Of a stretch of DNA of 26,568 nucleotides, positions 1,026 to 11,875 are shown piece after piece. Location of the stretch: the IMG/VR virus record IMGVR_UViG_3300028857_000025, positions 1 through 26,568 of that record; one strand, 5' to 3'. Origin of the DNA: a virus (taxonomy: Duplodnaviria; Caudoviricetes). The position numbers and the translations under genes were made by a program. A model generated the notes under the pieces. That model did not search any database and had not been told where the DNA came from. It was given only the letters and a program-made list of their open reading frames with translations. How positions within the stretch are numbered: the first letter of the stretch is position 1; each line of letters begins with the position of its first letter.

Positions 1026-1193
1026 ATGATAATTACAATGAAAGAAGAGGACCTGCGCGCTATCCTCGAAACATTTAAGCTTACGCCGCAAGAGATTGAC
1101 CGTATGCTTGATGATATCAGGCTCCCGGAAGGGCACACTTTAACAGCGGATGACTTTGAAACCGTTGAAGATTTTGGGAGAACAACGCCATGA
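1026..1193 (+). CDS. Hypothetical 55-aa acidic protein (not in ORF track)
   Basis: AGGAG SD, ATG 1026, MIITMKEEDLRAILETF...; the TGA overlaps the next ATG (ATGA coupling at 1190-1193). Confidence 0.7.
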   Translation: MIITMKEEDLRAILETFKLTPQEIDRMLDDIRLPEGHTLTADDFETVEDFGRTTP

Positions 1194-2353
1194 GCTTATC
1201 AACAGCAGACAGAATAACTAAGCAACATATTTGGCTGATGGGGCACAAACCCACTATGCATTACTCAGGTATTGTTATGGTGGGCGACGTGGACATATCG
1301 GATGCGCTGCCCACGGCGGGCACCAATGGTCGTGATGTAACTTATAATCCACAGTTCGTGGACTCTCTCACCGAGCAGCAACTGCGGGGCTTGGTGCTGC
1401 ACGAGGCAGGGCACAAAGCTTACCAACATCTCTTTTTATGGCAAGAGCTGTACAAAGAGGATGCCAAGCTGGCGAACATGGCTTGTGATTATGTTATAAA
1501 TCTTGAAATCTATGACCTTGACCCACGCGGGGTTGAGATAGCTCTGCCCCCTAACCCCTGCCTGGACGAGAAGTATCGGGGCATGGACACGAAACAGGTG
1601 TTTGAATTACTCAAGCAAGACAAAGCCAATGGGGGCCAAGGCGGCAAGGGCGAGCCGATGGACGACCATCAATGGGAAGACGCCCAAGCCTTGCCTGAAG
1701 AAGAGCGCCAAGCCTTGGCCAAGGAGATTGACAATGCCATACGCCAAGGCGTTTTTATGAGCGGAAAGCTCGGTGGCGATGTCTCCCGTGGCTTCAATGC
1801 CTTGCTGGAGCCTAAGGTCGACTGGCGCGACCAGCTCCGGGACTATGTAAGTACCGTAACAGCCGGTCGTGGGGACAGCACTTGGGCACGCCCTAACCGC
1901 CGTTTTATGGCCATGGACTTGTATTTACCCAGCCAAATCAGTGAGTCTATTGGCAATATCGTCGTGGGTATCGACACGAGCGGCTCGATATCGGGCGAAG
2001 CCATCACTGCGGCGCTGTCTGAATTAGTTGGCATCTGTAATAACACCACGCCCGAACGAGTTGACCTTTTATATTGGGACACTCGCGTCGTTTCACATGA
2101 AACCTATTTCGAGGGCGACTATGAGAGCATTGCAACGTCCACGAAACCTGCGGGTGGCGGCGGTTCGAGCTGCGTCGAAGTGTTCGAGTATATCAAAGAC
2201 AACAAGCTCGACCCGTTAGTGTGTATCCACATTACTGATGGCTTCATTGAGTACCCGCAACTACCCCCCAACTATCCGGTGCTGTGGGTGATATGCAACG
2301 GTAGTGACCACCACCAACCGCCGTTCGGGAGCTTTATCAGGGTGAAGCTGTGA
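1190..2353 (+). CDS. DUF2201-like putative metallopeptidase with C-terminal VWA-like domain
   Basis: TAGTNGR, LHEAGH (HExxH), NMACDYVIN, WxRPNRR, MIDAS-like IDTSGS, GGGGS and ITDG motifs. Confidence 0.85.
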   Translation: MSLSTADRITKQHIWLMGHKPTMHYSGIVMVGDVDISDALPTAGTNGRDVTYNPQFVDSLTEQQLRGLVLHEAGHKAYQHLFLWQELYKEDAKLANMACDYVINLEIYDLDPRGVEIALPPNPCLDEKYRGMDTKQVFELLKQDKANGGQGGKGEPMDDHQWEDAQALPEEERQALAKEIDNAIRQGVFMSGKLGGDVSRGFNALLEPKVDWRDQLRDYVSTVTAGRGDSTWARPNRRFMAMDLYLPSQISESIGNIVVGIDTSGSISGEAITAALSELVGICNNTTPERVDLLYWDTRVVSHETYFEGDYESIATSTKPAGGGGSSCVEVFEYIKDNKLDPLVCIHITDGFIEYPQLPPNYPVLWVICNGSDHHQPPFGSFIRVKL

Positions 2354-3696: not shown

Positions 3697-4005
3697 ATGT
3701 CCTATTTAACGCCCGAAGGGCGAATCAAAAAGCAAATCAAAGCTATACTGGCTGAGTATGGGGTATATTATTTCATGCCAGCGCCCGGGTTTACTTGTAA
3801 AGTAGGCGTTCCAGACTATATATGCTGCCTTAATGGGCATTTCATAGCCATCGAAGCCAAGGCCGGGCGCAAGCTGCCGACGCTGCTGCAACAACGTGAA
3901 CTTGACTTAATCAACGCCGCAGGCGGCGTGGCTTTGGTGGTTAACGCCGACAACATACACGCTTTTCCCCTCATACTACAAGAGATAATGAAATGCAACT
4001 ACTAA
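3697..4005 (+). CDS. VRR-NUC domain nuclease
   Basis: TPEG.IK, GVPDYI, FIAIEAKAG, PTLLQ, INAAGG motifs of phage VRR-NUC proteins. Confidence 0.85.
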   Translation: MSYLTPEGRIKKQIKAILAEYGVYYFMPAPGFTCKVGVPDYICCLNGHFIAIEAKAGRKLPTLLQQRELDLINAAGGVALVVNADNIHAFPLILQEIMKCNY

Positions 4006-6791
4006 CTCTGGACGCAGAAACTTTTTATGCAAAAGATTATTCCCTAAGTAAGCTGACGACCGAGCAATATATAACAGATGACCGCTTCGAGGTTATCGGT
4101 GTATCCACCAAGATTAACAACGAGCCCGCACAATGGTTCTCCGGAACATTTGATGAGACGAAAGCATACCTAAACCAATTTGATTGGGATGATATTGCAT
4201 TAGTAAACCACAATAGTCTATTCGACTCAAGCATCCTTGGCCTGCGCTTCGGTATCCACCCTAAGAAGCTCATCGACACGCTAAGTATGTCAAGAGCAAT
4301 CCATGGCATCGAGGTCGGGGGCAGTCTGGCCAAGCTGGCTGAGCATTACCAGCTGGGTGTCAAGGGCACTGAGGTCATCAATGCCTTGGGTAAACGTAAA
4401 CAAGACTTTACTACTGAAGAACTAGCGCGCTATGGTGAGTACTGCAAGAACGACACCGAGCTAACGTACAAATTGTTTTACAAACTACTGCCGCACTTTA
4501 CTAAATCTGAATTAGACATTATTGATATCACCCTGAAGATGGCCACACGACCGTTGTTGGAATTGGATAAAGCCGTGCTGACCGCACACCTTGCCGACGT
4601 GCAAGCTAAAAAACAAGCGCTCATGGACAAGGTCATTGTCTCTCGAAAAGAGCTGATGTCCAACGTCAAATTGGCGCAACTGCTGATAGACTGTGGCGTG
4701 GAGCCGCCAATGAAGCTGTCGCCGACTACCGGTAAGCCGGCCTATGCGTTCGCTAAAACAGACGAGGGCTTCAAAGCATTACTTGACTCTGATAACCTTA
4801 TGGTACAAACTATTGTTGCTGCTCGGTTGGGTGTTAAATCAACGCTTGAAGAAACGCGATGTGAAAGGGTTATTGGCATTGCAGAAAGGAACAGGTGTTG
4901 TCCTTTCCCGCTGAAGTATTACAGTGCCGCGACAGGGCGCTGGGCGGGGGCAGATAAAATCAATGTCCAGAATTTCCCGCGTAAGTCGCCGTTAAAGCGA
5001 GCGTTCAAGGCCCCCGAGGGTTATGTTATTCTGGGCGCGGACTTAAAACAAATCGAACTGCGCGTGGGCCTCTGGCTGTCGTCGGAGTGGGAGAAACTGG
5101 ATATCCTGGCAGGCGGGCTGGACTTGTATAAAGTCTTCGCCTCAGAGGTACTGGGTGTTGCCTATGATGAGGTCACAGAAGACCAGCGCTTTATTGCCAA
5201 GACCTCCTGTATCGCAGAAGGACAGCTTGTCCTTACCCCAAGGGGTTTAGTGCCTATAGAAAACATTTTGGTAGACGATAGAGTATGGGATGGGGTAGAA
5301 TGGGTCTCACATGATGGGGTCATTTACCAAGGGGAGAGAGATGTCATCACATACCAAGGACTTACAGCCACTACCGACCATATTATATTTACGCAAACTG
5401 GTGAGACCCGCCAGTTCGGGGATGCCGCCAATTTATCAGCGCGTCTCGCTACTACCGGAGATGATAGGCGCCCGCTTAAATTCATGGGAGATAATCAGTA
5501 CCGAGATACAACAAACAGTGAAATCGGGGAGCATAAAGATACATGTGCGCTGCGTTTGTGGCAGAGAGCAGTGGGCGTATGTAGAGGCCATTATCAGAGG
5601 GCAGTCCAGACGATGCAAGCCTTGTGCAACACGAACTCGGCACCAAAGGCAAGGTCATCTGATTGTCTGGGACAAGGTTACGGAGCTTATACAAAAACGG
5701 GCAACAGCTATGCAACAAAGATGCTGCAATCCTATGGACAAAGGCTACGCCAATTACGGAGGACGAGGGATTCAGTTTTTGTTTGGCTCAACGAAAGAGT
5801 GTGTAGAGTATATCAAAACGTTGCCTCTCTGGGATTCCGGGTTGGAGGTGGACCGAATCGACAACAATGGACACTATGCAGTAGGGAACTTGCGTATGGT
5901 GTCCCGCAAGGTACAGACCAGCAATCGTCGAAATACGATGTGGATTTCGTGGCGAGAGGAAATGCTTCTGGTAGCGGACTGGGCAGAATCCCCTTACGCA
6001 CTGAGAGTAACCTGCAAGTATGTTCAGCAGGGTTTAACGGGGGAACAAATTATCCAGACCGCATGGGACTCAGTGGCGAAGAAATGCAAGAATTGGCGGG
6101 GGATAAAAAGAAAGTTAGAGTCTATGACATATTAAACGCCGGCCCTAGGCATCGCTTCACGGTGTCTAACGTGTTAGTCCATAACTGTCTGTCATTGGTT
6201 TTTGGGGTGGGCGCGGCGAAGCTGCAAGCGGCTATTCTCTCGGGTATAGGTTTGGATGTGGGCATCGTCGAAAGTAAACGGATAGTGGAATTTTACCGAG
6301 ACAACCACCCCGGTGTGAGAGCAGCATGGTCGGCGTGTGGTAACGCTATTAAGTTATTAACCACAGGCGGTGAGGGGATGATACTAACCGATAATTTAAT
6401 CAAGGTCGAAGGGCGCAAGGGTATCCGGCTACCGTCAGGACTGTATTTAAAATACCCTGAGCTACAGTATTCTGAAGATGCGCAGACCCGGAAGCGGGAA
6501 TATAAATACAAAATTAGAAGCAGTTGGGATAGATTGTACAGCGGTAAGTGTTTTAACAATATTACTCAGGCAACTGCACGCTGTATCTTTGCTGAGGCGC
6601 TACCCAAAATCAATAAGCATTACCCTATTGTATTATTGATTCACGACGCCGCCTATGTCCTGGTGCCGGAGGGGGGTGTAGAGGAGGCGAAGCAGATTTT
6701 AGAAGAAATCATGTGCCAGCCGCCGGACTGGATGCCGGATATTCCCTTGGAGGTTGAGTTTCATTATGGCCGAACTCTTTTCGATTGTTAG
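3993..6791 (+). CDS. polA: Family A DNA polymerase with 3'-5' exonuclease domain, intein-containing precursor (932 aa; ~606 aa after splicing)
   Basis: Exo motifs LDAET, HNSLFD, YCKND; TGRW; motif A DLKQIELR; motif B RFIAKTS/CLSLVFG split by the intein; motif C IHDA. Confidence 0.93.
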   Translation: MQLLTLDAETFYAKDYSLSKLTTEQYITDDRFEVIGVSTKINNEPAQWFSGTFDETKAYLNQFDWDDIALVNHNSLFDSSILGLRFGIHPKKLIDTLSMSRAIHGIEVGGSLAKLAEHYQLGVKGTEVINALGKRKQDFTTEELARYGEYCKNDTELTYKLFYKLLPHFTKSELDIIDITLKMATRPLLELDKAVLTAHLADVQAKKQALMDKVIVSRKELMSNVKLAQLLIDCGVEPPMKLSPTTGKPAYAFAKTDEGFKALLDSDNLMVQTIVAARLGVKSTLEETRCERVIGIAERNRCCPFPLKYYSAATGRWAGADKINVQNFPRKSPLKRAFKAPEGYVILGADLKQIELRVGLWLSSEWEKLDILAGGLDLYKVFASEVLGVAYDEVTEDQRFIAKTSCIAEGQLVLTPRGLVPIENILVDDRVWDGVEWVSHDGVIYQGERDVITYQGLTATTDHIIFTQTGETRQFGDAANLSARLATTGDDRRPLKFMGDNQYRDTTNSEIGEHKDTCALRLWQRAVGVCRGHYQRAVQTMQALCNTNSAPKARSSDCLGQGYGAYTKTGNSYATKMLQSYGQRLRQLRRTRDSVFVWLNERVCRVYQNVASLGFRVGGGPNRQQWTLCSRELAYGVPQGTDQQSSKYDVDFVARGNASGSGLGRIPLRTESNLQVCSAGFNGGTNYPDRMGLSGEEMQELAGDKKKVRVYDILNAGPRHRFTVSNVLVHNCLSLVFGVGAAKLQAAILSGIGLDVGIVESKRIVEFYRDNHPGVRAAWSACGNAIKLLTTGGEGMILTDNLIKVEGRKGIRLPSGLYLKYPELQYSEDAQTRKREYKYKIRSSWDRLYSGKCFNNITQATARCIFAEALPKINKHYPIVLLIHDAAYVLVPEGGVEEAKQILEEIMCQPPDWMPDIPLEVEFHYGRTLFDC
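5208..6185 (+). mobile_element. Intein (326 aa) in polymerase motif B
   Basis: Block A CIAEGQLVLTPRG, block B TATTDH, block F/G VYDILNAGPRHRFTVSNVLVHN, followed by Cys+1. Removal restores motif B. Confidence 0.93.
5311..6135 (+). CDS. HNH-type homing endonuclease in the +1 frame inside the polymerase intein (true start uncertain: 5311, 5341 or 5461)
   Basis: MIGARLNSWEII...RCVCG...CKPC N-terminal module; MQQRCCNP...YANYGGRGI; LEVDRIDNNGHYAVGNLRMVSRKVQTSNRRN, the typical phage HNH-family signature. Confidence 0.85.
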   Translation: MMGSFTKGREMSSHTKDLQPLPTILYLRKLVRPASSGMPPIYQRVSLLPEMIGARLNSWEIISTEIQQTVKSGSIKIHVRCVCGREQWAYVEAIIRGQSRRCKPCATRTRHQRQGHLIVWDKVTELIQKRATAMQQRCCNPMDKGYANYGGRGIQFLFGSTKECVEYIKTLPLWDSGLEVDRIDNNGHYAVGNLRMVSRKVQTSNRRNTMWISWREEMLLVADWAESPYALRVTCKYVQQGLTGEQIIQTAWDSVAKKCKNWRGIKRKLESMTY

Positions 6792-6910
6792 GCAGTGTCT
6801 GTATTGTTGGCTACACGGCTTTGGCATGAAAACTGGAGCGGAGATTTGGCTTAGACGCCAAGGCATCCGCGAAAATTCTAACTATCATTTAGGCTCACAG
6901 AGGCGACCAC

Positions 6911-8540: not shown

Positions 8541-8782
8541 ATGAACTACCCACAAACGGCCCCGGCAAATACGATGATATTTGTACGGTGGCGCGAGAAA
8601 GAACCGATGCGCAAGCCGCCATTGTTATTATAATTAATGGCGTGTTGGGCAGTGGTTTCTCACTACAGTCGGAACATCCGGATGTAGTAGTCCAACTACC
8701 CGATATGCTTGAAACAATGGCTAAAGAAATACGTGAAATAATTACTGAGGAGAAGGCAGATGCCGTACAAAGACATGAATGA
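8537..8782 (+). CDS. Hypothetical phage protein
   Basis: ATGA overlap, 81-aa ORF in operon context. Confidence 0.65.
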   Translation: MNELPTNGPGKYDDICTVARERTDAQAAIVIIINGVLGSGFSLQSEHPDVVVQLPDMLETMAKEIREIITEEKADAVQRHE

Positions 8783-9023
8783 CCGCGACCCGTCACACGA
8801 GGCCCAGGTCGAAAAGAAAAACCCCAAAGCCGTGGCCGCACGCAAGAAACGGCAGCAGGCTAGACAATTGTACGATAAACTCGATATCCCTAGAAAAGGT
8901 AAGGATATTGACCATATTAAGGGCACCGAAGCCGGCAACGCCAAGAGCAATCTCAGGCTACAGACGCCGTCACAGAACCGGTCATTCCCACGTAATTCAA
9001 ATCACACTGCAAAGAGGAAGTAA
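8760..9023 (+). CDS. Small HNH endonuclease
   Basis: KGKDIDHI...GN.KSNLR....SQNRS HNH core; AGGAG upstream. Confidence 0.8.
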   Translation: MPYKDMNDRDPSHEAQVEKKNPKAVAARKKRQQARQLYDKLDIPRKGKDIDHIKGTEAGNAKSNLRLQTPSQNRSFPRNSNHTAKRK

Positions 9024-9024
9024 C

Positions 9025-9237
9025 ATGCAAATATCAACCAAGTCAGTGATATCACTGGCAGAGGAAGCGGGGCTCCCGCCCTCTTTAATCGAGCGCCACA
9101 CCGATGCTTTAACGCATTTTGCACTCCGCCTGCGCATGGCAGAACGGCGCGTTTGTCGTAATAAGCTGCGCAACTGGACCATAGACAAGTCCCTGAGCAA
9201 GCCGCCGCTACTTGAGGCGCTGACGGAGCATGATTGA
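9025..9237 (+). CDS. Hypothetical protein (start at ATG 9025 rather than 8779)
   Basis: GAGG SD at 9014-9017; begins right after the HNH stop and overlaps the helicase start. Confidence 0.6.
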   Translation: MQISTKSVISLAEEAGLPPSLIERHTDALTHFALRLRMAERRVCRNKLRNWTIDKSLSKPPLLEALTEHD

Positions 9238-11875
9238 GATAATACATGATAAGGTGTTATCCGTCACCACGGATAGCCCTGACGACATTACAACAGTAAT
9301 AGACAAGTACAAGATAGACAATGGCAAAGTGCTCATCCCCTTTAATCTGGGGAATGTTCACATATTAAAAAACATGGGCTTTACGGTACCGTCGCCCATT
9401 GAGACTCGGTATGGGTGGCCTGGACTCCATAAACCCTTTTCGCATCAGCGCAGTATCGCTTCGTTTTTGACCTTGAATAGGCGGGCGTATAACTTTGGCG
9501 AATTAGGAATTGGCAAAACGAAAAGCGCTATCTGGGCTGCCGACTACCTACTAAGTATAGGTGCTATACGGCGTGTATTGGTTATCGCGCCGCTTAGCAT
9601 CCTCGATTCTGCATGGAAGCAGGAGATATTCAGGACAGTGATGCATCGGTCTGTTGATGTGGCGCATGGCACAAAGGAGAAACGCGAGGCAATAATCAAT
9701 AGTAAAGCTGAGTTTATACTTATCAATTATGATGGCGTCGAGATTGTGATTGACGCTTTGGACCGAGGTAACTTTGATTTAATCATAATTGATGAGTGCT
9801 TTGTAGCTGGGACACGAGTTCTTACGCCTATTGGTTTTAGAGCTATTGAACAAATCGTAGAAGGTGATATAATAGAGACAAGTTGGGGGCCAAGACCCGT
9901 AACCAAAACGTTTCATAAACAATCATCCAACATAGTTGAAGTCGAGTTTGAAGATGGTATCAAAATTACCTGCACAGAAGAGCACCCTTTCTCAACCCGA
10001 AATGGTTGGGTCGCCGCAAAAGACCTCCTTGGTGAAATATGTACTACATCAAGAGAATTGTCACACCTGCGGGACGCCGTTCGAGCAGAAGGTGTTTGCC
10101 AACCAGAAGGCATCTCACTATTGTTCTCGCGCATGTTGGAAAGAGTCGTACTATGTAGATTTGGTGTGCGGGCATTGCGGAAAAAAGTATCGAAAGGTAA
10201 AGAGTTACTTAAGAACCAACCCTGCAAAATATTGCAGCACAAAATGTACGGCGCAAGCGCGCTCTGCAAAAGTTATGGGGGAGACAGTTATGTGTCCGGT
10301 CTGCGGAGGGGAGCATTTTGTACCCCACAGAGTGTTGCGGTATCGTCCAGCATTAACCTGTTCCCGTTCCTGCGCCAGAAAGTTAGTGTGGCAAACAGAG
10401 CGAAAGCGGATGATGGATGGCGTACAGAAAGCAGCGGAGAAGCATCGGGGCCAACCCTCACCTCTCAGGGGGATTCCCCATACAGAAGAGCGCAAGCAAC
10501 AACAGCGTGCGCTGGCAGTAGAGTTGGGGAGTCGGGAACCGTTCATGCGAGTGCGGGGCGGCAATGGTACGGGTATGTCAAGAGTAGAGTTACTAATGCG
10601 CTCAATACTCCCAGAAAGTTTCCAATACAACTATATTGTAAAGACATTACAAAAGCGTGGAAGCGGGTATCCCTATCACTACAAGCTGGATTTCGCAGAC
10701 CCTTTACAGATGATTTGTTTAGAAGTAGACGGGTACAGCCACAATACAATACAGCGTCAAGAACAAGACAGGAAGAAAGAGGCGTTGCTTCAGGACTTAG
10801 GGTGGTCAGTGTTACGCGTATCCAACAAGGATGTCCTCGCGATGTTTGGAATCTGGAAGTAGCGGGCCCTCATGATTATATCGTTGAGGATGTGCTAGTC
10901 CATAACTGCAACTACATAAAGAACGTCCAAACCCGCAAGCACAAGTTCATTAACAAGTTGATTAAAGCGGATACCTGGTGCTGGCTAATGACCGCTACAC
11001 CGGCTGCGCAGAGCCCTTGTGATGCCTATGGTCTGGCGCGTATGATAGACCCTAAATCAGTGCCTCGGTCTTATGGTGCATTTAGGGAGATGGTGCAGTA
11101 TAAAATCAATATGTTTATGTGGATAAATAAACCCGATGCAGAGCGAACAGTACACAGAGTTTTACAACCCGCAATTAGATTTACTAAATCAGAATGTTTG
11201 GATTTACCTGAGCTATTATATGAGACGCGTGAAGTACCTCTGACCGCACAGCAAAACAAGTATTACAAACTTCTAAAAAAGGAAATGATGATTCTCGCTG
11301 CGGGTACAACGGTCACTGCGGCGAACGCAGCGGTTCTGATTGGAAAGTTGTTGCAAATTTCAGCGGGCAACTGTTATGATGAACGTGGGGATATTATTGA
11401 GTTTGATATCTCCAACCGATTCAGAGAGCTGTGTGATATCATCCGTGAGACGCGTAACAAAACGATAGTGTTTGTGCAGTTTAGGAACTCCATCGAGCGA
11501 ATCATGCGGATGCTGCAGGATGAAGGCATTACTTGCGAGGCCATTCACGGGAAAATCCCCATGAATAAGCGGGATGTCATCTTCTCTGATTTCCAAAACA
11601 AACCCGACCCGCAAGTGTTAATCATCCAGCCGCAAGCTGCGGCACACGGTGTGACATTGACAAAAGCGGATACGACAATATGGTTCGGGGTACCCATGTC
11701 CTTTGAAATTTACCAACAAGGGAATGGGCGTACGCACCGCGCCGGACAACGCAACCAATGTACTGTTGTCCATTTGATAGGTAGTGATGTTGAGAAGAAA
11801 GTATTGAACGCGTTGGACAAAAAGAATATGTCCGCAACGACTCTATTGGCATTATTTAAAGAGGTAATAAAATGA
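9230..11875 (+). CDS. SNF2-like SF2 helicase, intein-containing precursor (881 aa; ~511 aa after splicing)
   Basis: Motif I GELGIGKT, VIAPLS, INYDG, motif II IIIDE/CN split by the intein, MTATP, HGVTLT, Q..GRTHRAGQ. Confidence 0.92.
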   Translation: MIEIIHDKVLSVTTDSPDDITTVIDKYKIDNGKVLIPFNLGNVHILKNMGFTVPSPIETRYGWPGLHKPFSHQRSIASFLTLNRRAYNFGELGIGKTKSAIWAADYLLSIGAIRRVLVIAPLSILDSAWKQEIFRTVMHRSVDVAHGTKEKREAIINSKAEFILINYDGVEIVIDALDRGNFDLIIIDECFVAGTRVLTPIGFRAIEQIVEGDIIETSWGPRPVTKTFHKQSSNIVEVEFEDGIKITCTEEHPFSTRNGWVAAKDLLGEICTTSRELSHLRDAVRAEGVCQPEGISLLFSRMLERVVLCRFGVRALRKKVSKGKELLKNQPCKILQHKMYGASALCKSYGGDSYVSGLRRGAFCTPQSVAVSSSINLFPFLRQKVSVANRAKADDGWRTESSGEASGPTLTSQGDSPYRRAQATTACAGSRVGESGTVHASAGRQWYGYVKSRVTNALNTPRKFPIQLYCKDITKAWKRVSLSLQAGFRRPFTDDLFRSRRVQPQYNTASRTRQEERGVASGLRVVSVTRIQQGCPRDVWNLEVAGPHDYIVEDVLVHNCNYIKNVQTRKHKFINKLIKADTWCWLMTATPAAQSPCDAYGLARMIDPKSVPRSYGAFREMVQYKINMFMWINKPDAERTVHRVLQPAIRFTKSECLDLPELLYETREVPLTAQQNKYYKLLKKEMMILAAGTTVTAANAAVLIGKLLQISAGNCYDERGDIIEFDISNRFRELCDIIRETRNKTIVFVQFRNSIERIMRMLQDEGITCEAIHGKIPMNKRDVIFSDFQNKPDPQVLIIQPQAAAHGVTLTKADTTIWFGVPMSFEIYQQGNGRTHRAGQRNQCTVVHLIGSDVEKKVLNALDKKNMSATTLLALFKEVIK
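9797..10906 (+). mobile_element. Intein (370 aa) in the helicase DExx (Walker B) motif
   Basis: Block A CFVAGTRVLTPIG, block B TCTEEHPF, block F/G VWNLEVAGPHDYIVEDVLVHN, followed by Cys+1. Confidence 0.93.
9936..10862 (+). CDS. Zn-finger + DUF559/Vsr-like endonuclease in the +1 frame inside the helicase intein (start uncertain: 9936, 9954, 10002 or 10032)
   Basis: Three CxxCG...CSxxC repeats, a NUMOD3-like GIPHTEERK segment, and the catalytic region YKLDFA...CLEVDGYSH...DRKKEALLQDLGWSVLRV. Confidence 0.85.
   Translation: MKSSLKMVSKLPAQKSTLSQPEMVGSPQKTSLVKYVLHQENCHTCGTPFEQKVFANQKASHYCSRACWKESYYVDLVCGHCGKKYRKVKSYLRTNPAKYCSTKCTAQARSAKVMGETVMCPVCGGEHFVPHRVLRYRPALTCSRSCARKLVWQTERKRMMDGVQKAAEKHRGQPSPLRGIPHTEERKQQQRALAVELGSREPFMRVRGGNGTGMSRVELLMRSILPESFQYNYIVKTLQKRGSGYPYHYKLDFADPLQMICLEVDGYSHNTIQRQEQDRKKEALLQDLGWSVLRVSNKDVLAMFGIWK

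Follow-up and report, generated by a model that had tools for sequence, protein, structure and literature searches.

How does a gene for an endonuclease-like protein come to lie inside an intein and out of its reading frame, and what keeps both frames open? The question is raised by IMG/VR virus record IMGVR_UViG_3300028857_000025 (Duplodnaviria; Caudoviricetes), of which we analysed positions 1 to 26,568, a stretch of 26,568 nucleotides (nt) referred to here as the window. In it the open reading frame (ORF) of a family-A DNA polymerase is interrupted by an intein, and an ORF for an HNH-like protein overlaps the middle of that intein in the +1 frame (Table 1). Our reading, which we hold to be probable, is that of a class-1 intein at polymerase motif B in which the +1 HNH-like gene (5341 or 5461 to 6135) is under purifying selection, is likely translated separately and encodes a predicted homing nuclease, the polymerase frame across it being a stop-free spacer that is predicted to be disordered.

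An intact intein around a gene in another frame

The polymerase ORF (3993-6791) matches DNA_pol_A (PF00476, expectation value (E) 6e-21), a 3'-5' exonuclease domain (PF01612, E 3e-8) and phrog_17 (E 2e-79). The intein within it begins with Cys1 (CIAEGQLVLT), carries the TxxH of block B as TATTDH and ends in ...LVHN before the Cys of the C-terminal junction, so that both class-1 nucleophiles are present, C1 at 5208-5210 and C+1 of the C-extein at 6186-6188. In an alignment of 43 related inteins C1, T55, H58, D307, G312 and N326 are invariant. The original prediction, made from the sequence alone, had claimed intact splicing blocks, and C1, TxxH and His-Asn are there and unchanged in relatives. 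[quoted passage not shown] In the PDB its fold is matched best, among the entries listed, by inteins or by HINT-type domains related to them (gp41-1, Ssp DnaB, Mtu RecA, Npu DnaE), with a probability of about 1.00 and a best E of 2e-3, just over the 1e-3 line. Outside the splicing block, the middle of the intein frame gave no match in Pfam, NCBIfam or PHROG. This middle had been described as filler of about 225 codons; it is indeed unconstrained and predicted to be unstructured, and the part predicted to lack structure is about 190 residues long (98-287). The intact catalytic residues and the insertion into the essential motif B suggest that splicing would restore the polymerase.

Two other arrangements were considered and rejected. 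A fractured gene with a split intein (Dassa et al. 2009) is ruled out by the single ORF of 932 codons. A group I intron carrying a homing-endonuclease gene finds no intron match in Rfam (positions 4900-6500, E <= 1, with a sub-threshold chance match only), and the host frame stays open beyond what is expected.

The +1 frame is open from 5299 to 6132, and its ORF from 5311 to 6135 encodes 274 amino acids (aa) with the motifs RC.NP...Y.NYGGRGI and EVDRIDNNGHY..GNLR......N and an N-terminal part with four cysteines. The protein matches two PHROG families labelled HNH endonuclease (phrog_374, E 2e-21; phrog_3377, E 4e-19), and D131, R132, N143 and N155 are conserved among its 35 homologues. Its model, built on an alignment with 34 homologues, has a mean pLDDT of 93.6 and matches 89 models of viral proteins at E <= 1e-3 in a structure search; among the best of these several are named HNH endonuclease, HNH homing endonuclease or AP2-domain protein, and many are without a name. 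The label HNH is taken from the PHROG families and the annotations of these viral proteins because the match to solved structures is weak. We regard the nested protein as HNH-like and predict for it the role of a homing nuclease. These matches, the confident model and the selection described below bear out the earlier proposal of an endonuclease-like gene out of frame with the intein.

Table 1. Coordinates of the polymerase, its intein and the nested gene in the window (a slash marks a splice junction)
Feature	Position	Strand	Remarks
Family-A DNA polymerase precursor ORF, 932 aa, with 3'-5' exonuclease domain	3993..6791	+	PF00476, PF01612, phrog_17
N-extein and C-extein	3993-5207; 6186-6788	+	Polymerase ORF
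Class-1 intein, 326 aa, in polymerase motif B	5208..6185	+	QRFIAKTS/C...LVHN/CLSLVFGVG
N-terminal splicing domain, residues 1 to ~96, blocks A and B	5208..5495	+	pLDDT 92-98; substitution peak at polymerase-frame codon position 3
Shine-Dalgarno-like GGGGAG, 4 nt before ATG 5341, from intein codons G-E-R-D	5331..5336	+	Duplex with anti-Shine-Dalgarno sequence -8.6 kcal/mol
Nested HNH-like ORF, +1 frame, 264 codons from ATG 5341	5341..6135	+	TAA 6133-6135 inside block F
Alternative start ATG 5461, 224 codons, onset of conserved homology	5461..6135	+	
Intein-frame spacer, residues 98-287, stop-free, unconstrained, predicted unstructured	5499..6068	+	pLDDT <50; dN/dS 1.0-2.4
Four-cysteine motif, likely zinc ribbon, C31, C33, C52, C55 (numbered from ATG 5461)	5551..5625	+	(Nearly) invariant, 35 homologues
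Predicted beta-beta-alpha core, E129-N155, EVDRIDNNGHYAVGNLRMVSRKVQTSN	5845..5925	+	Strands 129-132, 144-147, helix 149-154 (model)
C-terminal splicing domain, residues 298-326, blocks F and G, VYDILNAGPRHRFTVSNVLVHN	6099..6185	+	pLDDT 97; variability phase back at polymerase position 3

Selection acts on the nested frame

When the +1 ORF was subjected to 20,000 synonymous codon shuffles and the stops falling in the polymerase frame were counted, the shuffles gave a mean of 8.4 stops against 0 in the real sequence, and not one of the 20,000 was stop-free; the third frame over the nested ORF contains 19 stops. The host frame is likewise open in Streptococcus phage Javan255 (16.2 stops expected), Gardnerella phage vB_Gva_AB1 (9.5 expected) and EBPR siphovirus 2 (4.4 expected, P 5e-4). 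The third base of nested codons is never T before AA, AG or GA (0/3220), compared to 2101 of 8347 elsewhere, and therefore synonymous choice is enough to hold the host frame open. That the host frame stays open by selection, as had been argued from its length, is thus supported both by the missing stops and by the avoidance of T.

The original prediction had proposed a comparison of the ratio of nonsynonymous to synonymous substitution rates (dN/dS) in both frames across homologues, which we carried out on 22 pairs of related loci, one of them identical and 21 informative, with a measurable (unsaturated) dS in four. Substitutions in the overlap peak at the third position of the nested codons in 21 of the 21 informative pairs. 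For the four pairs the nested frame gives dN/dS values of 0.05, 0.05, 0.11 and 0.16, a sign of purifying selection, compared to 1.03-2.40 for the polymerase frame over the same overlap and 0.03-0.43 for the polymerase frame upstream of it. The same switch can be followed along 23 distinct inteins of 309 aa (identical DNAs were collapsed here, in the counts of relatives and in the start-signal analysis), where the most variable phase is host position 3 at codons 1-58, moves to host position 1 (equal to nested position 3) at codons 61-285 and returns to host position 3 from codon 289. Across the middle the polymerase frame is kept only free of stops, and selection on amino acids acts on the nuclease frame alone in the overlap. 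The dual coding is thus one-sided, because the polymerase frame is open yet not selected for its amino acids, and the earlier description of the region as true dual coding went too far.

The composite element in related viruses

The best tblastn matches of the +1 protein in phage records fall inside annotated DNA polymerase genes, in six Streptococcus phages, Gardnerella phage vB_Gva_AB1 and EBPR siphovirus 2. At the three loci that we fetched the homologue is out of frame, in +1 in Javan255 and vB_Gva_AB1 and in +2 in EBPR siphovirus 2. A blastn search of phage records with the polymerase gave a match only to 174 nt of the N-terminal splicing domain, in six Streptococcus phages, and a search of genome contigs with the nuclease gave no confirmed relative. 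The intein region matches 3250 proteins at E <= 1e-3; in the best 120 of these, 22 others align in their middle to the filler of the window and none has the nuclease in frame. No longer proteins with the nuclease in frame were found either, which is weak evidence by the search tool's own grading.

The N-terminal splicing domain has, in its 80 nearest relatives, 54 (48 distinct DNAs) with a full nuclease in +1, 7 with remnants of one, 14 mini-inteins and 5 that are cut by the end of the contig; the nuclease is in frame, in +2 or antisense in none of the 80. Starting instead from the nuclease, 80 viral loci with relatives of it divide into 57 that are free-standing and 23, including all of the 10 closest, that are nested in a long ORF on the same strand (17 in +1 and 6 in +2, one of these doubtful). 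The 23 host ORFs comprise, at E <= 0.001, 14 of DNA polymerase A, 3 of superfamily 2 (SF2) helicase families and 6 without a Pfam match, of which five have intein boundaries and one, L061, is doubtful. Neither locus L061 (a host ORF of 233 aa with no intein marks, probably a chance ORF) nor L025 (the same as L024 over the overlap) was used in the analyses of boundaries and start codons, and proper intein boundaries are found at 25 of the 25 loci examined. Of the 80 nearest relatives of the N-extein, 70 lack an intein at the motif-B site, 7 have the intein with a +1 nuclease (two of these being the sequence of the window itself) and 3 carry an intein whose nuclease is in +2. The distances between splicing domains and between nucleases are correlated across 62 loci (Mantel r 0.70, 0 of 2000 permutations as high). 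Taken together, the sequences suggest that the composite element would move as a unit and lose its nuclease by deletion, and that it may have originated when a free-standing endonuclease gene entered a mini-intein; such an invasion is consistent with the 57 of 80 nuclease relatives that stand free and with the absence of an in-frame form in the searches.

Several relatives depart from the common layout. A sister lineage (L003, L035, L047, L056, L059, L060, L178-L180) carries a related HNH-like gene in the +2 frame of related inteins, at the same or an adjacent motif-B site, with an extra insert and a different C-terminal tail, as might follow from a separate invasion or from a change of frame by paired indels. 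Seven inteins of 124-187 aa (L100, L102, L106, L112, L113, L120, L122) retain in +1 no more of the nuclease than its N-terminal part (the four-cysteine part, at profile positions of about 3-55) and resemble intermediates of deletion from a full intein to a mini-intein. At L116 (identical to L121) a premature stop leaves an ORF of 62 codons from the conserved ATG while the host frame is open, and the close relative L118 has 254 codons, so that L116/L121 looks like early decay of the nuclease. At L139 (identical to L141) the polymerase frame ends in block F just past the nested ORF, about 875 nt from the start of the intein, with unrelated sequence beyond; this has the look of a rearrangement whose breakpoint lies at the 3' edge of the nuclease gene.

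The frame offset is not an assembly artefact

An overprinted gene would also appear if two compensating indels, through an error in sequencing or assembly, had displaced an HNH domain that is really in frame. We checked this at the level of contigs. Three other IMG/VR contigs from other assemblies are 100% identical to the window over 3.8-6.7 kb, and contigs of two sequencing runs (X1, positions 3900-6436; X14, positions 4894-6900) span the intein completely and match it without a difference or a gap. All sampled words are found in 19 DNA runs of peat metagenomes, these two among them, runs that possibly belong to one campaign or include the source. A contig of 151 nt in run X1, from a strain variant, differs from window positions 5884-6026 at 14 of 143 nt with no gaps, and 8 of the 10 listed differences are at third positions of the nested frame (by our reckoning of the frame). 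An indel error would have to account for a layout that recurs with the same offset in the 54 of 80 intein relatives above, the nuclease being in frame in none of the 80, just as none of the best 120 intein-bearing proteins has this HNH-like domain in frame. With identical, gap-free DNA at hand in three viral contigs and two runs, we find no sign of a nuclease displaced from the intein frame and regard such an error as having next to no chance of being the explanation.

A probable start signal within the splicing domain

The original prediction offered two ways in which the nested gene could be expressed, an internal start or a +1 frameshift. The first fits the relatives well. In 44 of 47 distinct full-length inteins a +1 ATG stands at intein nt +133 or +145, the window (GGGGAG and ATG 5341) being of the +133 type, and in all but one of the inteins an ORF of 190-305 codons follows from the conserved ATG. 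A GGAGGT-like motif lies mostly about 8 nt upstream of it, with a median of -10 kcal/mol for the duplex with the anti-Shine-Dalgarno sequence. The Shine-Dalgarno (SD) motif and ATG of the relatives are formed by the intein codons K/R-E-V and Y-D/E-G, and the codons that make the motif are over-used (GAG in 34 of 38 compared to 0.51 expected, TAT in 33 of 36 compared to 0.41, with P values that ignore shared ancestry). Other signals did not stand out: promoter-like sites number 3 compared to 1.7 expected, which is not significant, terminator-like sites 1 compared to 1.2 expected, and RNA folding over 5290-5400 around the SD and ATG (z -0.36) shows no sign of a sequestering hairpin.

By the second way, a programmed +1 frameshift would produce the nuclease joined to the N-extein and to an N-terminal portion of the intein. 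As this would require, the open stretch of the window's +1 frame begins at 5299, ahead of the nuclease homology; we know of no shift site here, and no search for one was made. Such a fusion is unlikely because the +1 frame of many relatives ends at a stop lying one or two codons ahead of their conserved ATG (intein nt +145), and an SD-like motif precedes that ATG. We give the frameshift very little credence and retain the separate internal start.

Proposed mechanism and points on the other side

In the mechanism that we propose, a free-standing phage homing-endonuclease gene would have entered a mini-intein. The nuclease would start from an SD-like motif and ATG set in conserved codons of the intein (in the window G-E-R-D-V and ATG 5341), and initiation within a translated ORF would hold its level low. 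It would cut or nick polymerase alleles that lack the intein at motif B, and repair would copy the intein and the nuclease gene together into the cut allele. The spacer, predicted to be disordered, would leave with the intein on splicing. With the nuclease in +1, a stop in the host frame requires a nuclease codon ending in T and a next codon starting with AA, AG or GA, a combination that synonymous choice could avoid cheaply.

A number of observations weigh against this picture. Translation of the nested gene, its nuclease activity and splicing of the intein are, for the window, predictions from sequence and models. Contigs of 151 nt from two RNA libraries (X20, X21) match parts of 5207-5759, which is no proof of transcription. 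The SD motif of the window is weaker (-8.6 kcal/mol) and nearer to the ATG than in the relatives, and the P values for codon bias were computed as if the relatives were independent of ancestry. An SD motif with ATG is about equally frequent in mini-inteins (7 of 9) and in full inteins (44 of 47), and therefore the motif could be a by-product of conserved intein residues. Within the window's own subgroup the phase of selection switches only near codon 85, which corresponds to ATG 5461, and for this reason we give the start as 5341 or 5461. Arg132, invariant in the 35 homologues, stands at the position of the first His of HNH, and N143 and N155 are kept; the two positions are equated by our reading of the model against the canonical motif. 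We chose the name HNH-like because this invariant Arg replaces the first His. The best structure in the PDB, the HNH enzyme PacI, aligns with a Z of 5.5 and a root-mean-square deviation of 3.5 over 81 residues, below the noise level of the tool, the match spanning residues 67-159 of the model in a wide structure search. Foldseek against the PDB gave none at E <= 1e-3 (PacI and Gme HNH appear only at E of about 2-2.6), a profile search of PDB sequences returned nothing relevant, and the protein has no HNH match in Pfam or NCBIfam, its sole Pfam row being a chance match to Gliadin (E 0.02).

These last points would fit a nested protein that is selected but is not a homing nuclease, for instance a DNA-binding or otherwise useful phage protein of a 'DRIDN' family that is resident in the intein, with any mobility driven by other means; no paper on such a family was found by its motifs in the literature searched. 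We think this unlikely, since the layout accompanies the intein into at least four different genes, nuclease and intein co-diverge, the insert is absent from 70 of the 80 nearest polymerases, the shortened inteins with ORF remnants only show the decay expected of a homing gene, and the closest structural relatives are phage proteins of which several are named HNH or homing endonucleases.

The +1 ORF, under selection in ancestors, could also persist here as an intact but no longer expressed relic, in an intein that is now inherited vertically. The weak SD of the window, where no promoter-like or structural signal stands out, would agree with this, as would the premature nuclease-frame stop of L116/L121 beneath an open host frame. 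Set against it are the intact ORF in the window, the predominance of intact ORFs in relatives and the co-occurring strain variant, which differs mostly at third positions of the nuclease (8 of the 10 listed). We judge a relic to be improbable, and return to an expressed protein with the predicted role of a homing nuclease as the reading to be preferred for the window.

Going beyond the window, we incline, with some reserve, to a broader proposal: that overprinting is the ancestral and stable design of a large clade of phage inteins (about 970 viral stretches, an estimate), that the ribosome-binding site (RBS) and start codon of the nuclease are written in conserved codons of the splicing domain, that intein and nuclease form a co-diverging two-protein mobile module found in at least four replication genes, and that one phage may hold two such modules with unrelated nucleases.

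Other features of the window

A second overprinted intein of 370 aa (9797-10906) is found in the ORF of an SNF2/ResIII-type helicase (9230-11875), inserted after motif II (IIIDE/CFVAGTRV...VLVHN/CNY). In its +1 ORF (9936-10862, 308 codons) CxxC motifs recur, and a DUF559/Vsr-like domain is encoded (PF04480, E 2.7e-7, above the cut-off). The helicase frame over it has 0 stops compared to 9.2 expected, with 0 stop-free shuffles in 20,000, and the third frame has 17 stops. Just upstream of the helicase, an ORF of 87 aa on the plus strand (8760-9023, overlapping the ORF 8779-9237) has an HNH_3-like motif, DIDHIKG...N..NL, with PHROG HNH matches at E of about 1e-5 and Pfam HNH_3 at E 0.006, below the cut-off; it may be a free-standing endonuclease gene. 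Further upstream, positions 1190-2353 (plus strand) match phrog_1314, 'HNH endonuclease', at E 8e-84, and Pfam gives a DUF2201 metallopeptidase-like and a VWA-like domain, so that the label looks doubtful.

Meaning of the arrangement

Gene callers retain the long ORF of the polymerase and overlook the gene nested in it. The nuclease of the window is absent as an exact sequence from the protein collection, and homing endonucleases of this kind are therefore under-counted. The loci described here support the view of intein evolution in which splicing came first and the endonuclease later, and do so through many loci rather than few. They show that a host frame can be held open by synonymous choices alone, and, with a frame under selection that switches twice within 1 kb, they offer a natural system on which methods for finding overlapping genes can be tried. 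Should the nested protein prove to cut motif-B DNA of family-A polymerases without the canonical His, the HNH superfamily would gain a variant active site.

Comparison with known systems

The general kind of arrangement has already been described, in papers of 2025-2026 from the Gogarten laboratory. No report of an out-of-frame HNH-like gene in a family-A polymerase intein was found in the literature searched, which was incomplete and left preprint supplements outside it, and two features were not found in the papers compared: the start signal within the splicing domain and the predominance of the layout in a large intein clade. The window has an uninterrupted host frame, frame-specific selection and a sporadic distribution (70 of 80 polymerases lack the intein), the marks by which inteins with an endonuclease in a separate frame are tested. 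The combination of an intein with an HNH-type endonuclease is itself known from an intein in a phage gene of nucleotide metabolism; there the HNH_3 domain lies inside the intein polypeptide, a form not found among relatives of the window (best 120 proteins, 80 nearest loci).

Split inteins with a free-standing endonuclease gene between their halves, in so-called fractured genes (Dassa et al. 2009, PMC2677866), share with the window a free-standing endonuclease gene in an intein-coding region, phage-like DNA and a 3' end that overlaps the C-terminal part of the intein. They differ in having the host gene in two ORFs, trans-splicing and GIY-YIG or Vsr-like enzymes, whereas the host frame of the window is continuous. 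A closer likeness in the enzyme is found in ShiLan, where an HNH gene is hidden in another frame of a stop-free host ORF, here a methylase (Arsenault et al. 2025, Genes, PMC11855218). According to the parts of that paper available, the ShiLan insert has no detectable splicing domain and would thus stay in the host protein, whereas in the window the intein would rescue the host; its authors detected no RBS for ShiLan and propose leaderless initiation at GTG, compared to the SD-like motif before the ATG in the window.

A +2 LAGLIDADG ORF in a cyanobacterial dnaX intein shows frame-specific selection (Phillips, DeSimone, Gogarten, bioRxiv 10.64898/2026.09.14.751524), and these authors credit the first proposal of such an arrangement to Gorbalenya 1998. 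In the portions of the preprint available, the dnaX case agrees with the window in purifying selection on the overlapping ORF, raised dN/dS in the middle of the host frame, sporadic distribution, mini-intein relatives and a proposed origin by secondary invasion. It differs in its enzyme, its +2 frame and its cellular cyanobacterial gene, the window having an HNH-like gene in a phage polymerase.

The nearest parallel is a survey of actinophage inteins with the endonuclease in a separate frame (Gosselin, Arsenault, Gogarten, bioRxiv 10.1101/2025.01.02.630785), the work that the original prediction had alluded to without naming it. As far as the accessible text goes, the actinophage inteins resemble that of the window in being contiguous, with their splicing blocks intact and an endonuclease ORF between these in another frame, in having an intein-frame middle without recognisable structure and in showing signs of continued transfer, and these authors too propose the invasion of an intein by a free-standing endonuclease gene. 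The enzymes and hosts differ. In the same portion of the preprint the same-strand enzyme is endonuclease VII-like and lies in frame 3, HNH enzymes occur only in frame, LAGLIDADG and Vsr-like genes lie antisense, the hosts are actinophages and the DNA polymerase family named is Pol III alpha. Vsr-like genes in full inteins are, in that text, antisense only, compared to the same-strand +1 gene in the helicase intein of the window. The elements described here have an HNH-like gene in +1 (+2 in the sister lineage), occur at motif B of family-A polymerases, in SF2 helicases and in other genes of viral contigs that are not from actinophages, and differ further from the inteins of that preprint, as far as it could be consulted, in embedding the start signal of the nested gene in the splicing domain.

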